DNA from: Promethearchaeota archaeon
Lineage (GTDB): Archaea > Asgardarchaeota > Lokiarchaeia > Sigyniarchaeales > SOKP01
DNA: 64,000 nucleotides
Assembly (NCBI GenBank): GCA_048941285.1
Contig: JBHLNS010000001.1
Span: 132,878-196,877, forward strand
Direction: 5' to 3'
Positions 8,123-13,560 of the stretch are shown here, piece by piece. The first letter of the stretch is position 1, and every line of letters begins with the position of its first letter. The notes under the pieces were generated by a model, which was not told the origin of the DNA, made no database searches, and was given only the letters and a program-made list of their open reading frames with translations. The position numbers and the translations under genes are program-made.

Positions 8123-9580
8123 ATGGCTACTATAAATGATATTTTAAGTGAAGTATTAAAAGAGATTACGCCAACAAGTCAAGAAATTGATCGAATCAAT
8201 CAGATTTCTAAAAATCTTGAACAATTACTAGATAAAAAAGCTAAAGAGTTGAAAATTAAATATAATAAAATTGAACCTCAAGGATCAACTGGAATTAAAC
8301 AAACACAGGTAAAAAATGATTTTGATATCGATCTCTTTATAGGATTAGACTATAATCAATATAAACCAAAATATAAGGGTTTGAGTAAAAGCAAATTAAA
8401 AAAAAAATCAAAAAAAGATTTTTTGGCGTTATGCAATAAATGGATTCTCCAAAGTCTTACACTAAATGAATTCCATAATCCTCGCCTCTTATATGCAGAG
8501 CATCCGTATGTAACAGTAGATTACATTTTAAAAAATATAAAAATTAAGGTCGATATTGTTTTATATTTTGATTTAGAGTTAGAATATATTAAGGAACATG
8601 GACCTATTACTGCAGTTGACAGATCCCCTTGGCATGGCTACTTTGTCAGAGATAAATTAGATCCTAAACAAAAGAATGATGTAAGGCTTTTAAAGCAATT
8701 CTTTAAAGCTTGTTATAGTTATGGTGATAAAAGCGCCGTAGGCAGAGTTGGTTTTATTGGATATAGTGCTGAATTATTAATTTATTATTTTAACGATTTT
8801 ATTACTTTATTTGAGAATTTTACTGAATTAGACAAGAAACCACTAGATTATTATCACAGAAATAAGGATGAATTAAATAAAATTGTTCACTTTCAAAATG
8901 ATTATCTTATTATTGTAGATCCAATAGATAAGAATCGAAATGTTGCGTCTGCAATATCCGATAGAGCATTTAAATATTGTAATCAGAAAATAAATGAATT
9001 CTTAGAACATCCAAGCATAGAATTTTTTGAACTTAAACCAATACCCGAAGTTGATTTATCTAATAAAGATGATCCTCTCCTTTCGAAAATTTATATTATT
9101 GAATTACAGAATATTGATTATGATCTCCATTATACTATTAATAGAGATAAATTATATTCTCTGGGAGAAGGCATTAAAGCTAATGGAGAAAAAGAATTTT
9201 CTCATGTAGATCGCTTTGGAACAATTATATTTGAAGTATACTTCGAAGATGATAAGAATCAGTATAATATAGCCATTTTTTGCGAAAAACCTCAAATAGA
9301 TGAATCTTATATTCGCAAAGGACCTCCCATGACAGAAGAAAGACACGTTGTTAATTTCCAAAAAAAAAATCCAAAATATTTTGAAAGGAACGGTCATTTA
9401 TGGGTAGAAACTGTCAGAGATTTTAATAATTTCTCTGATTTTTTAAAAGAATTTGTTAAAGATAAAATTCCTGATAATTTTAATATTAAAAATATCTCGA
9501 CTGCATTTCAAACCCGTAGTTCTTCGGGGAAAAAAACAATAAATATATTGAGAAATATTATTTTGCCTCTTTATATTTAA
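8123..9580 (+). CDS. cca: Archaeal (class I) CCA-adding enzyme
   Basis: QGS...DFDIDLF nucleotidyltransferase motif, YAEHPYV, TAVDRSPWH, GFIGYSAELLI, DPIDKNRNVASA. Confidence 0.93.
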   Translation: MATINDILSEVLKEITPTSQEIDRINQISKNLEQLLDKKAKELKIKYNKIEPQGSTGIKQTQVKNDFDIDLFIGLDYNQYKPKYKGLSKSKLKKKSKKDFLALCNKWILQSLTLNEFHNPRLLYAEHPYVTVDYILKNIKIKVDIVLYFDLELEYIKEHGPITAVDRSPWHGYFVRDKLDPKQKNDVRLLKQFFKACYSYGDKSAVGRVGFIGYSAELLIYYFNDFITLFENFTELDKKPLDYYHRNKDELNKIVHFQNDYLIIVDPIDKNRNVASAISDRAFKYCNQKINEFLEHPSIEFFELKPIPEVDLSNKDDPLLSKIYIIELQNIDYDLHYTINRDKLYSLGEGIKANGEKEFSHVDRFGTIIFEVYFEDDKNQYNIAIFCEKPQIDESYIRKGPPMTEERHVVNFQKKNPKYFERNGHLWVETVRDFNNFSDFLKEFVKDKIPDNFNIKNISTAFQTRSSSGKKTINILRNIILPLYI

Positions 9581-9666: not shown

Positions 9667-11949
9667 ATGGTTAAAGTGAAAAACCCAGAAGAAATCGCTA
9701 AACTAGTAACTTCTGGTTCATATGAGAAGAAGAGAATATTTTCAATCACAGCTCATATAGATCATGGCAAAACAACTGCCACAGATTATCTTCTTCGAAG
9801 AGCAGGATTAATGAGACCTGAAGACGCTGGCCAGCTCCAAATGACAGATTCAGATTTAGATTAAGGCTTACTTGATCTACTGAAAGATGAGGAGCAGGAA
9901 CGAGGCATCACGATCTTCACAAGTGTAGTCTTACTTGCATTCAACGATCCAAGAAAACCAAAAGATGACGAACCTTATATTATACAACTGAATGACACTC
10001 CTGGTCACATAAGCTTTACCGGAGAGGTATCCCGAGCCCTTAGAGGTTCAGATGGTGCTATAGTATTAGTGGATGCTCTTGAGGGGGTCATGACTCAAAC
10101 AGAAACTAATATAAGGTTATCTGTTGGTGAAGAATACTGTAAACCTGTCCTTTTTATAAATAAGGTCGATAGATTGATTAGCGAATTAAAACTCAGTCCT
10201 CAAGATACTTTTGCAAAAATCGACAAAATTACTAGAGAAGTCAATGATTTGATAAAAAAAGTAAGACCAGAAGGGTCGGATTGGAGTATAGATTTTGCGA
10301 AAAATTCCGTTGCAGTTGGTTCAGCTAAACATGGGTGGGGTTTCACTTATGAAATTTTACTTGAAAAGGGTTTGAAACCTCAAGATGTTTTTGCTAAATA
10401 CAATGAAGGGGATATTCAATGGTTAAGAGATAATTTACCCCTAGATGAACCAATGTTAAGAATGATCGTAGATCATCTCCCAGATCCTATTACCGCTGCG
10501 AAGTATAGAATACCACATATATGGGGTGGTGATTTAAACTCAGAGCTAGGGCAATCTCTTATAAGGAGTGACCCAAAAGGAAAATTGTATGGGATGATTA
10601 CAAAAATTTTCCTAGATCCAAAAAGAAATTATCAAGCTACACTTATAGGCCGCGTTTTTTCGGGTACTTTTGATCAAAGCGATACACTGTATCTTATTAA
10701 CAGTGATTCTCAAAGTCGAGTGAAGAGACTTGGAGTCATGGAAATTACAGATATTTTAGATATTCCAAAGATTCCCGCGGGTAATCTATTTGCATTATAT
10801 GGATTCATTTCTCCATCTGGAGAAACTTTCATTAACGCAAATGATGTACCTAAAGATAAAGAGGAAAAGAAGAGAATTCCTTCTTTTGAAAAAATACATT
10901 ACGCTTGTGAAGCTGTTGTTTCCAGAAGTATCAAACCAAAAGATCCACATGATATTGATAAATTAGATGAAGTTGTATCCAAATGGTTAAAAGCAGATCC
11001 GACAGCAGAATACAGAAGAGATGAAGAATCAGGAGAATTTATTTTATCGGGAATTGATCCATTACAAATAGAGATTTTAGTTAAGAGGATAAACAATCAA
11101 GTCCAAATTAATATTGGAGAACCAATTATCGTTTATAGAGAAAAAATTACTCAAAAAAGTCCTGATTTTTATACAAAATCTGCGAATACACATAATCGTA
11201 TCTTATTATATATTGAACCCCTGGATGAAACTACTGAGCGGTTAATCGAAACTGGTAAAGTAAATGATTTACAAAATGAGAAAGAAAGAGCTCAAATTCT
11301 TAGAGAAGAAGCTGGATGGGATGCTAAAGAAGCAAGAAGAATTGTTGATTTATATCATGGAAGCGTTCTTGTAAATGGTACCTCTGGATTACAGAGATTC
11401 GATCGTGTTAAATCTTATTTAAGTGCTGCTTTTAGGGATTGGCTTGGTGATTGTATACTTGCAAAAGAGCCTGCTGCTGGAATTAAAGTCGTATTCACAG
11501 ATATGACAATACATGAGGATACCAGACATACGTCTTATGGTCAGATTGCAGGAATGTTCTTCTCAGCCGTTTCTTTAGCTATGTTAGATGCAAAACCACA
11601 TCTATTTGAGCCAATCCAGAGAATAGATATAAAATCACCACAAGGAACAGAAGGAAGTGTAAGTACTATTATTACAAAACGCCGAGGTCGGATTACTAAC
11701 GTTATTCCCGAAGGAGAATATGTGAGGATTCAAGGTCAGATTCCAGCAGCAGAGACAATAGGACTTGCTGACGATATTAGAGGCTCAACAGCCGGAAGGG
11801 CATTTTTTGGTTATGAATTCTTAGGATTTGAAAAAGTTCCTCCCAATCTTGAAGAAGATATCATTATGGAAATTCGCAGAAGGAAAGGTATGCCATTAGA
11901 ATTACCTAATAGAAAGAGTTGGGAGAGATTTATTTACAAAAGAACCTAA
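9667..11949 (+). CDS. EF-2-family translational GTPase (probably the divergent aEF-2p paralog); two exons, 9667-9855 and 9886-11949, 750 aa after splicing
   Basis: AHIDHGKTT, EQERGITI, DTPGH and NKVD all lie in one reading frame across ORFs 9667-9864 and 10069-11949. The only break is a TAA inside a 30-nt BHB-forming insert. C-terminal IRGSTAGRA...IRRRKG is typical of archaeal EF-2. Confidence 0.92.
9856..9885 (+). other. Putative archaeal bulge-helix-bulge (BHB) mRNA intron, 30 nt
   Basis: Central helix TCAG(9850-53)/CTGA(9880-83). 3-nt bulges ATT(9854-56) and AAG(9884-86). Inner stem TAGATTAAG/CTTGATCTA with loop GCTTA. Outer pair AT/AT. Excision restores the reading and the conserved spacing. 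Confidence 0.88.
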
Positions 11950-12227: not shown

Positions 12228-12791
12228 CTAAGAGAAACTAGAGATTTTAGCAATCATATATAGTTTTTTAACAAGAGCTTTAAACGCATCAGAAACTCCT
12301 TGCCCTGTTAAAGCACTCGTTTTATAATATCCAATAAATCTATTATCTTTAGCTAATTGTTCAACATTTGCATCAGAAGTAGTTTTATTTGGATCTGATG
12401 CTAATTGTCCATCATCAACTAAATCTACTTTATTTCCAAAAAGTATTATTGGAATATTTCCACAATATATTTTAAGATCATTAAACCATCTATTAACATG
12501 AGTATAACTCTCAGTTTGATCTGGAGCGTGAGAAAAAACTATTATTGCACCACTACTTCCAATATAGAATCTTTGACGTAGTGCTTGAAATGAATCCTGC
12601 CCAGCAATATCCCAAAGAAACAAACTAATCTTCTCTCCATCAATTTCCTCTTCGTATTTAGAGAATTGTGTTCCTAAGGTTGATATATATTCTTTTTGAA
12701 AGGATCCTTGAGTATATTTTTTAATCAATGATGTTTTACCAACAGCTCCATCACCAATGACGCAAATTTTAAATCCGTATCCGTCGCTCAT
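12228..12791 (-). CDS. Rab/Ras-like small GTPase
   Basis: GDGAVGKT, WDIAGQ, NKVD, TSAL; no C-terminal cysteine motif. Confidence 0.93.
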   Translation of the reverse strand: MSDGYGFKICVIGDGAVGKTSLIKKYTQGSFQKEYISTLGTQFSKYEEEIDGEKISLFLWDIAGQDSFQALRQRFYIGSSGAIIVFSHAPDQTESYTHVNRWFNDLKIYCGNIPIILFGNKVDLVDDGQLASDPNKTTSDANVEQLAKDNRFIGYYKTSALTGQGVSDAFKALVKKLYMIAKISSFS

Positions 12792-13002: not shown

Positions 13003-13560
13003 CTATCTTGTAGCTCTATGGTATAATTTTCTTACTAATGTTTGAAAACCTTCTTGAACTCCTTGACCTGTTAAAGCACTCGTCCTGAGATATTCATTAA
13101 TATTATGATCTTGAGCAAATTTCTGAACATGAACATCTGAAGTTTCGTAATCTGGACTTGAAGCTATTGCATTTTGATCAACTAAATCAGCTTTATTACC
13201 AAATAAAATTATTGGTATCCTCCCACAAGCTTCTTTAATATGTGATAACCATTTATCAATATTACGATAAGTTTCAATTTCTTCAGGAGCAAGAGAAAAG
13301 ACGATAATAGCACCACTACTTCCTTTGTAAAATCTCTCACGTAGCGTAGCAAATGACTCTTGACCTGCTAAATCCCATAAGAATAGCTCAACCATTATTC
13401 CACTTATTTTTTCCTCGTACCTGGAGAATTGCATTCCTAATGTAGAAATATAATCTTTTTGAAATGTGTTTGTTGTATATCTTTTAATTAATGATGTTTT
13501 GCCAACGGCAGCATCCCCTACTACAACAATTTTAAACCCAAAGGCTTTGTTGCTCATCAT
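13003..13560 (-). CDS. Rab/Ras-like small GTPase (tandem paralog of 12228-12791)
   Basis: GDAAVGKT, WDLAGQ, NKAD, TSALTGQGV. Confidence 0.93.
   Translation of the reverse strand: MMSNKAFGFKIVVVGDAAVGKTSLIKRYTTNTFQKDYISTLGMQFSRYEEKISGIMVELFLWDLAGQESFATLRERFYKGSSGAIIVFSLAPEEIETYRNIDKWLSHIKEACGRIPIILFGNKADLVDQNAIASSPDYETSDVHVQKFAQDHNINEYLRTSALTGQGVQEGFQTLVRKLYHRATR

Follow-up and report, generated by a model that had tools for sequence, protein, structure and literature searches.

A 30-nucleotide (nt) insert that interrupts the gene for archaeal elongation factor 2 (aEF-2) in a Promethearchaeota archaeon is very likely a genuine archaeal endonuclease-type intron, which the tRNA-splicing endonuclease EndA would remove from the mRNA. 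The insert lies at positions 9856-9885 of a 64,000-nt stretch of contig JBHLNS010000001.1 (assembly GCA_048941285.1, positions 132,878 to 196,877), referred to here as the window. What argues for an intron of this type? First, the borders of the insert are exact. Second, the insert recurs in related genomes. Third, the pairs of its predicted structure covary. Fourth, the interrupted genes are under purifying selection. Fifth, the genome encodes the enzymes that splicing would require. We infer cleavage and ligation from these features taken together. Asgard archaea with such inserts very probably splice some of their mRNAs.

Read from the ATG at 9667 on the plus strand, the frame encodes an EF-2 protein and stays open to 11949, except for a single TAA at 9862-9864. 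The local translation runs ...QMTDSD, then LD-stop-GLLDLLK, then DEEQERGITI... An earlier note on this DNA, made from its letters, had reported ten extra codons with a TAA ahead of switch I in an EF-2 frame, and both the reading frame and the profile match agree. Specifically, the N-terminal piece stops at position 60 of the NCBIfam aEF-2 profile (TIGR00490) and the C-terminal piece restarts at 61/62, so exactly ten codons, those of 9856-9885, are surplus. The note had assigned the host to the EF-2 family; this stands, and the host can be named more precisely as canonical aEF-2. The genome (94% complete) has two EF-2-family genes and no second aEF-2. The gene in the window keeps the histidines of the diphthamide loop (HEDTRH-T-S, which has the form HxDxxH). 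For Lokiarchaeota, section 21 of Narrowe et al. (PMC6143161) gives R702T and G703S/Q as the signature of canonical aEF-2. The other copy (L002 1318-3507) is 35% identical and is assigned to the paralog aEF-2p because it lacks the diphthamide loop. Since HEDTRH-T-S fits the Lokiarchaeota signature and the other copy is without the loop, the interrupted gene is, by these marks, canonical aEF-2 rather than aEF-2p, and the sole bona fide translocase of the genome. As a separate point of annotation, both copies fall below the NCBIfam aEF-2 cut-off of 738 bits (578 for the window gene, from exon 2 alone, and 645 for L002), so automatic naming of either gene would be unsure. A “1 TAA” within the aEF-2p match of a relative (G024) is merely the terminal stop.

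Comparison with relatives fixes the borders of the insert. An aEF-2 ortholog was found in all 40 relatives searched. Among the first readable junctions (29 loci), a 30-nt insert was present at the same place in 8 and there was none in 21. Once every ortholog in the genus had been collected, 52 genomes had a readable junction, 15 with the insert at this place (hereafter site A) and 37 without, and six orthologs from other genera are likewise intronless at exactly these borders. The intronless junction reads ...GAYTCAGAT^GAYGARGAR (carets mark borders), which is the junction predicted by the bulge-helix-bulge (BHB) rule. Thus, the earlier proposal that exact removal of 9856-9885 restores the spacing of other EF-2 proteins is matched by the junction of the 37 intronless genus orthologs. 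At site A the flanking bases are not the same, which leaves the border a single possible position. Of all 54 species genomes of the genus, 15 were positive in a search with a covariance model of the insert, and a pattern scan gave five more genomes from two other genera of the same family, which brings the total to 20 of the 161 class genomes, spread over three genera; in the site-A pattern, 18 non-intron rows were sorted by eye. The presence of the insert at one site in 20 separately assembled genomes indicates that it is no assembly artefact, an outcome that the earlier note had named as a way for its own reading to fail.

The insert is also not alone. The earlier note described a single one; it is real, and, counting it, two essential genes hold such inserts at three or more sites. 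Site B is a 30-nt insert with two to three stops that falls at AH^IDHGK in the P-loop of aEF-2. It occurs in four genomes, one of which (G017) has both site A and site B, while the other three (G041, G042 and G069) have site B alone. Site C is a 30-nt insert with two stops in the gene for RNA polymerase A′ (rpoA1) of the same genome as the window, 34 kb upstream of it (G000:C1:98368-98397, plus strand; L091 569-598). It lies between ...CMGHFGH and IELARPV... and has the H4-AU^...H4′-AA^ design of site A. The two pieces of rpoA1 span profile positions 4-77 and 78-877 with no gap, the gene is single-copy, and the predicted junction peptide is ...CMGHFGHIELAR. Site C is occupied in 3 of 47 pattern-matching genomes of the genus. 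Across the class, it is found in 10 genomes (this one and nine others) from five genera of one family, that is, in 10 of 135 genomes there versus 0 of 26 in six other families. Eight of these inserts are 30 nt long, one is 31 nt and one is 40 nt. In addition, in one genome with site A (G149), the AHID and HGKT of aEF-2 are separated by a 31-nt insert (L145 135-165, minus strand; G149:C76), with the hairpin present and three of four pairs in the central helix. This insert is possibly a fourth site, or possibly a decaying copy. All four sites are within the first ~80 codons (aEF-2 codons 30, 32 and 63; rpoA1 about codon 75). Possible causes of this clustering are that splicing takes place ahead of the first ribosome, or that loss via reverse-transcribed mRNA spares 5′ ends.

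Are there more such inserts? A structural scan of the same genome for inserts that fuse two open reading frames (ORFs), with the mirror arrangement (5′ bulge outermost) left out, gave 462 candidates. The 91 candidates of 66 nt or less were inspected by eye, and there were 74 hits under an added AU/A rule. Two of the 74 lie inside conserved domains, both 30 nt long, in aEF-2 and rpoA1; the rest resemble, by appearance, gene boundaries or chance. Two hits at 30 nt do not exceed the mean number for any one length, and it is profile contiguity, not the scan by itself, that supports the introns in aEF-2 and rpoA1. A covariance model (R1) run over the same genome recovered site A strongly, together with six weak matches (E 0.3-6) outside genes. 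A second model (R2), run over the genus, gave nothing beyond its training members and one non-coding match, in scans that, for R1 and R2 alike, score about 121-150 first-look candidates per genome and hence are not exhaustive. Several pattern matches were rejected on inspection: the rpoA-pattern match G019:C182 is not rpoA, and three further matches (G108, G155 and G031) and thirteen site-B pattern matches of 42-58 nt are ordinary coding sequence. In the aEF-2 gene of G061 (G061:C111; L079), a run of N after exon 2 residue 176 is flanked by a duplicated 28-residue segment and is a scaffolding artefact, not an insert.

The copies share a common plan. From the 5′ end, helix H contributes four exon bases, which are followed by an exon A and then U or C, where the first cut would fall; a single base leads into the hairpin, after which come four intron bases that complement H, then A followed by A or U, and the second cut. 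The pairing was assessed in an alignment (A3) of the 32 copies of 30 nt, which form 28 distinct rows from three sites and 364 pair cells. Standard pairs fill 95.9% of the 364 cells; with shuffled partners the figure is 63.5% (0 of 500 shuffles reach the observed value), and with slid registers it is 35-42%. Compensatory changes on both sides are found for 13 of 13 pairs. In the 28 distinct copies, the cells of helix H are 100% paired and those of the inner hairpin h′ 94% paired; two-sided changes occur in 4 of 4 pairs of H and in 9 of 9 pairs of h′. The 5′ bulge has an invariant A and a U that is at least 90% conserved, and the 3′ bulge has an invariant first A and a second A that is at least 90% conserved (both in the 32 copies). 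The picture is unchanged in smaller sets of copies. Site C is a good example: the third base of an exon glycine codon covaries with the intron, such that GGGC goes with GCCU, GCCC or GUCU, GGAC with GUCU, and GGUC with GGCU. The site C hairpins of different genera have nearly no sequence in common and are still paired. An alignment of orthologs for presence or absence and for stem covariation had been suggested as a check, and it shows patchy presence with covariation at all pairs.

The insert in the window fits this plan closely. A stretch of 81 nt (9825-9905) folds with a minimum free energy (MFE) of −23.6 kcal/mol (z = −3.14; 1 of 200 shuffles folds equally well). When the exon is kept fixed and the 30 nt are shuffled, 4 of 2,000,000 sequences give the 4-base-pair (bp) helix and a stem of at least 9 bp in the exact register. 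The elements described earlier, namely UCAG paired with CUGA, bulges AUU and AAG, a 9-bp stem with one G-U pair, and a GCUUA loop, are all present. EndA cleaves after the second base of each bulge. In the MFE structure, the 3-nt bulge AUU (9854-9856) lies between H and the hairpin, and its border after the second base is the border set by the intronless alleles. The arrangement H4+2^...H4′+2^, in which both cuts fall 2 nt 3′ of each H strand, holds for the DNA borders of sites A, B and C alike.

The exons also contribute to the structure. Exon-exon pairing of GCUCC with GGAGC, which had been raised as a possibility, is in the MFE structure and tracks the presence of the intron. The gene tree has 13 site-A alleles; this distal helix is complete, with five pairs, in 12 of them and one pair short in the remaining one. 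The 33 intronless alleles of the genus do not reach five pairs: 17 form two, 12 form three and four form four. In eight independent contrasts, on a tree built without the junction columns, the full distal helix goes with the intron in seven to eight and never the opposite way (median p 0.008); part of this signal could come from short flanks transferred along with the intron, and related genomes do not count as independent. The nine exon bases just ahead of the intron site read GATTCAGAT without exception in the 13 intron-bearing alleles, and in 15 of the 33 intronless ones. Synonymous sites in predicted loops (9846, 9888 and 9897) vary among the intron-bearing alleles. As judged from these alleles, the exon side is under structural selection via synonymous codon choice.

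The interrupted genes are not dead genes; they are under strong purifying selection. Across 105 pairs from 15 full-length intron-bearing aEF-2 genes, the ratio of nonsynonymous to synonymous substitution rates (dN/dS) has a median of 0.049 and a maximum of 0.088, with a median synonymous rate (dS) of 1.7. Left out of both the tree and the dN/dS analysis were G007 and G020 (exon 1 incomplete), G018, G042, G048 and G064 (gene cut by the contig end), G061 (the N run and duplicated segment), and G019 (gene not found with the query used).

How would the insert be removed? Two ORFs with an EndA domain, 198 and 201 amino acids (aa) long, are present in the genome (G000:C70:1939-2535, minus strand, and G000:C68:23978-24583, plus strand). 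One aligns to the catalytic half of two-domain enzymes and the other to the structural half, with a weak match to the beta subunit, a combination that fits a predicted heterotetrameric (alpha-beta)2 endonuclease. RtcB is encoded as well. In the proposed mechanism, the last six exon bases (UCAG and AU) and the intron would fold together, with CUGA of the intron pairing with UCAG of the exon, and a 3-nt bulge and the 9-bp intron hairpin would sit on the inner side of this central helix. The distal exon-exon helix would keep the two exons together. The heteromeric (alpha-beta)2 endonuclease would then make one cut after 9855 and one after 9885, each 2 nt beyond the 3′ end of a strand of the 4-bp helix. 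RtcB would join the exons to give ...TDSD^DEEQERGITI (junction peptide QMTDSDDEEQER), and would probably circularise the 30-mer.

It is possible, though very unlikely, that the insert is removed from the RNA by some other nuclease and ligase, or with an unknown guiding factor, instead of by EndA and RtcB. The motif is not a strict BHB, and the invariant bulge A and U, which to our knowledge are not a requirement of EndA, could mark a different recognition system. However, the cut sites have the symmetric geometry of EndA, each strand of the 4-bp helix being followed by one at a distance of 2 nt on its 3′ side, and the genome has both EndA subunits and RtcB. We know of no other archaeal system that excises such elements. 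Moreover, inserts of the same design appear to be present in tRNA genes of this genome. Aragorn predicts introns in 18 of the 30 tRNA genes, and some of the tRNA inserts, of 28-32 nt, have the H4-AU^ design of the mRNA introns (a rough register search, by eye). For example, a 28-nt insert in a D-arm (aragorn record [5855,5958]) has H strands UAUG/CAUG, bulges AU^A and AU^U, and an 8-bp hairpin. The shared design hints that the tRNA and mRNA inserts may have a common origin. Asgard tRNA genes are described as heavily interrupted in parts of two sources (bioRxiv 10.64898/2026.10.13.758758; PMC11291895), and the sections of PMC5829648 on the Asgard enzyme describe an (alpha-beta)2 EndA with an L1 loop and a broad specificity that tolerates relaxed motifs such as HBh′.

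Several observations weigh against splicing by EndA. First, the fold departs from the canonical form. The strict hBHBh′ motif is not found at site A: the outer AU/AU helix of the earlier note can form but is not conserved; of 8 distinct rows, 3 preserve the pair A9848-U9888 and 7 the pair U9849-A9887. The MFE structure has a fifth pair, U9849-A9884, in place of this helix, the 3′ cut site does not lie in a canonical closed 3-nt bulge, and an outer helix is not evident at sites B and C. Because the AU/AU helix is unconserved, the motif is best classed as a relaxed, HBh′-like BHB and not a strict hBHBh′, with a canonical 5′ bulge and a relaxed 3′ bulge; at site A, the 5-bp distal exon helix takes the place of the outer helix. 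Second, individual copies deviate. Some have one or two hairpin mismatches (e.g., G022, G017, G153 and G142), one genome (G103) has site A without the distal helix, and two others are exceptions with four pairs (G024 and G061). Third, archaeal translation can begin on nascent RNA, so ribosomes could reach the TAA before splicing. Fourth, the RNA data give limited help. These are contigs from four sediment metatranscriptome runs of one study (word shares 0.05-0.08; likeness 85), in an alignment that listed no joint. An RNA contig identical to the window covers 9696-9846 and ends short of the splice site. Two contigs from run X4, which belong to a relative, pass directly from exon 1 to exon 2 at 9855^9886, and their junction letters (19+11) equal, by eye, the exon flanks of five intron-bearing genomes (G001, G043, G050, G051 and G120) and of no compared intronless genome. 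The 30 letters upstream match no compared genome, and the contigs may derive from an intronless gene; as a sign of splicing, they are suggestive only. No spliced RNA was linked to an intron-bearing genome in the four runs, in which uncovered parts of the gene are uninformative.

Could the ribosome deal with the insert instead? Translational bypassing, for which phage T4 gene 60 and the mitochondrial byp elements are precedents, would have the peptidyl-tRNA leave the GAU before the stop, skip the hairpin and land downstream. There are resemblances: these elements, too, are short, stop-containing hairpin inserts with a patchy distribution in essential ORFs, the stop here comes just past the take-off region, the hairpin is stable, and the codons before and after the insert at site A in the window are both GAU. 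Nevertheless, a ribosome that landed on the second GAU would produce TDSD-EEQ and lack one Asp that every intronless ortholog has. In two site A copies (G117 and G149), the codon after the insert is GAA and not GAY, and at sites B and C the CAU/CAC codon has no counterpart at the 3′ end. Bypassing also leaves unexplained the covarying 4-bp exon-intron helix at all sites and the constant distance of 2 nt to the cuts. It is therefore a very unlikely account. Splicing has two further competitors, both barely credible. One is that the gene is dead (a pseudogene), encodes two separate polypeptides, or is an artefact of sequencing or assembly. The TAA is in frame, and gene callers would yield a 65-aa ORF and a 626-aa ORF at the locus; against this, the insert is in 20 separate assemblies, dN/dS is 0.05, the genome has no other aEF-2, and its sole rpoA1 has a similar insert. 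A downstream polypeptide would have to start at GTG 10069, the earliest in-frame start past the TAA, and would lose switch I and DTPGH, and site B would halve the P-loop. The other, stop-codon readthrough that keeps ten extra residues in the protein, is in line with an insert length that is a multiple of three at most sites, but it would have to pass three stops at P-loop site B and one to three at site C, two 31-nt copies shift the frame, and the inserted “peptides” are unconserved while the RNA pairs are conserved.

Table 1. Coordinates of the interrupted aEF-2 gene, of the predicted structural elements around its insert (positions in the window), and of the site B copies (positions in the named loci).
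Feature	Location	Strand	Remarks
aEF-2 exon 1	9667..9855	+	63 codons, end ...QMTDSD, P-loop AHIDHGKT inside; residues 18-63 = TIGR00490 positions 15-60
Predicted intron, 30 nt	9856..9885	+	in-frame reading LD-stop-GLLDLLK, TAA 9862-9864
aEF-2 exon 2	9886..11949	+	687 codons plus stop; residue 2 = TIGR00490 position 62, match to 720; loop HEDTRHTSYGQ
Central helix H, exon strand UCAG	9850..9853	+	pairs with 9880-9883
Central helix H, intron strand CUGA	9880..9883	+	pairs with 9850-9853
5′ bulge AU^U	9854..9856	+	probable cut after 9855; border set by intronless alleles
Inner hairpin h′	9857..9879	+	9-bp stem 9857-65/9871-79 with one G-U, loop GCUUA 9866-70
3′ “bulge” AA^G	9884..9886	+	probable cut after 9885; no conserved closing helix
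Distal exon-exon helix, 5′ strand GCUCC	9834..9838	+	pairs with 9891-95 in MFE
Distal exon-exon helix, 3′ strand GGAGC	9891..9895	+	pairs with 9834-38 in MFE
Site B copy, G017	L022 3688-3728	-	
Site B copy, G041	L059 197-237		
Site B copy, G042	L060 933-973	-	
Site B copy, G069	L087 201-241		

The surroundings of the gene can be described briefly. Upstream of aEF-2 is a gene for a CCA-adding tRNA nucleotidyltransferase (PF09249; 8123-9580, plus strand), and downstream are two genes for Ras-family small GTPases (12228-12791 and 13003-13560, both on the minus strand). These neighbours are consistent with an Asgard genome. An Rfam match to RAGATH-25 in the spacer before aEF-2 (9507-9541, plus strand) scores 20.7 bits against a gathering score of 49 (E 0.016) and was judged to be chance.

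The distribution of the inserts suggests that they may come and go. On the aEF-2 gene tree (52 rows, quick IQ-TREE), site A requires eight to nine changes and site B three. The clearest case is G043 (L061), which falls in a basal clade with four intronless members and has an intron identical to those of G001 and G050. When it is set against G012, a close sister from which it differs at 212 of 2250 nt, exon 2 opens with four substitutions within 12 nt, followed by 90 nt without any (compared exon positions 190-309). This is likely to reflect a recent lateral gain of the intron, with a short converted flank or with rapid adaptation of the flank; the alternative is several independent losses. There is perhaps an even chance that the broader interpretation is correct, namely that one family of Lokiarchaeial Asgard archaea harbours mobile, endonuclease-spliced mini-introns of a uniform ~30 nt, kin to its tRNA introns, at four or more 5′ positions of aEF-2 and RNA polymerase A′, each with its own 4-nt exon “guide”, and that these are still being gained, lost and passed between species.

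How do these inserts compare with known systems? The closest is the crenarchaeal cbf5 intron. As described in parts of Yokobori et al. 2009 (PMC2738675), it is likewise a short, non-spliceosomal intron in an archaeal protein gene, with a BHB-like motif, a hetero-oligomeric endonuclease thought to be responsible, and a patchy occurrence with lineage-specific loss. The present inserts fall outside the cbf5 group, as their hosts are aEF-2 and rpoA1. They also differ in that they are found in Asgard archaea and not in Crenarchaeota, occupy several sites instead of one, have a uniform size of 30 nt and show signs of lateral spread. Splicing of cbf5 was shown experimentally, according to the same source, whereas splicing of aEF-2 and rpoA1 is predicted. 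A second comparison is with the relaxed tRNA introns (HBh′/hBH/BHL) of TACK and Asgard archaea (PMC5829648; bioRxiv 10.64898/2026.10.13.758758; PMC11291895), which have the same 4-bp helix, half exon and half intron, with a 3-nt bulge, an intron hairpin and one relaxed bulge, and the same need for a broad-specificity (alpha-beta)2 EndA. Here, however, the host is an mRNA, the exon half of the motif is written in codons, and there is no tRNA body to aid recognition. As for bypass elements, they differ in the matching take-off and landing codons, which sites B and C lack, as do some copies at site A, and in lacking an exon-intron helix with a fixed cut geometry. A further parallel is found in eukaryotes: the HAC1 and XBP1 mRNAs are cut by IRE1 at stem-loops and sealed by an RtcB-type ligase, as a regulated stress switch. 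In both cases, a very short intron in a coding region would be removed by a protein endonuclease and an RtcB-type ligase, and removal is needed for the full-length protein. The nucleases are unrelated (IRE1 versus the tRNA-splicing enzyme), and there is no evidence of regulation here. HAC1 and XBP1 are named as cases of spliceosome-independent splicing in part of PMC13149111. In the open full texts searched, with subscription journals and supplements beyond reach, no report was found of introns in EF-2, in rpoA or in any Asgard mRNA, and cbf5 was the only case for archaeal protein genes. What is new here is that the lineage is Asgard, the hosts are essential genes, there is more than one site, the size is a uniform 30 nt and there are signs that the inserts move; the chemistry and logic are those of cbf5 and of relaxed tRNA introns.

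What would these introns mean for Asgard biology? So far, archaeal introns of the tRNA-splicing type in protein genes have been those of crenarchaeal cbf5 alone. First, if the interpretation is true, Asgard archaea splice the mRNAs of genes that the cell cannot do without. Second, the exon half of the motif would be held by synonymous codons, which would make these genes a natural test of RNA-structure selection in coding sequence. Third, gene callers would split or truncate the EF-2 and RpoA markers in Asgard genomes, affecting completeness scores and phylogenomic sets. Fourth, patchy spread and likely lateral gain would provide a living system for studying how introns arrive, a question left open in the part of the Asgard tRNA-intron census that bears on it (bioRxiv 10.64898/2026.10.13.758758). 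If there is indeed a family of mobile mini-introns, mRNA introns would be being gained, independently of the spliceosome, to this day in the closest prokaryotic relatives of eukaryotes.

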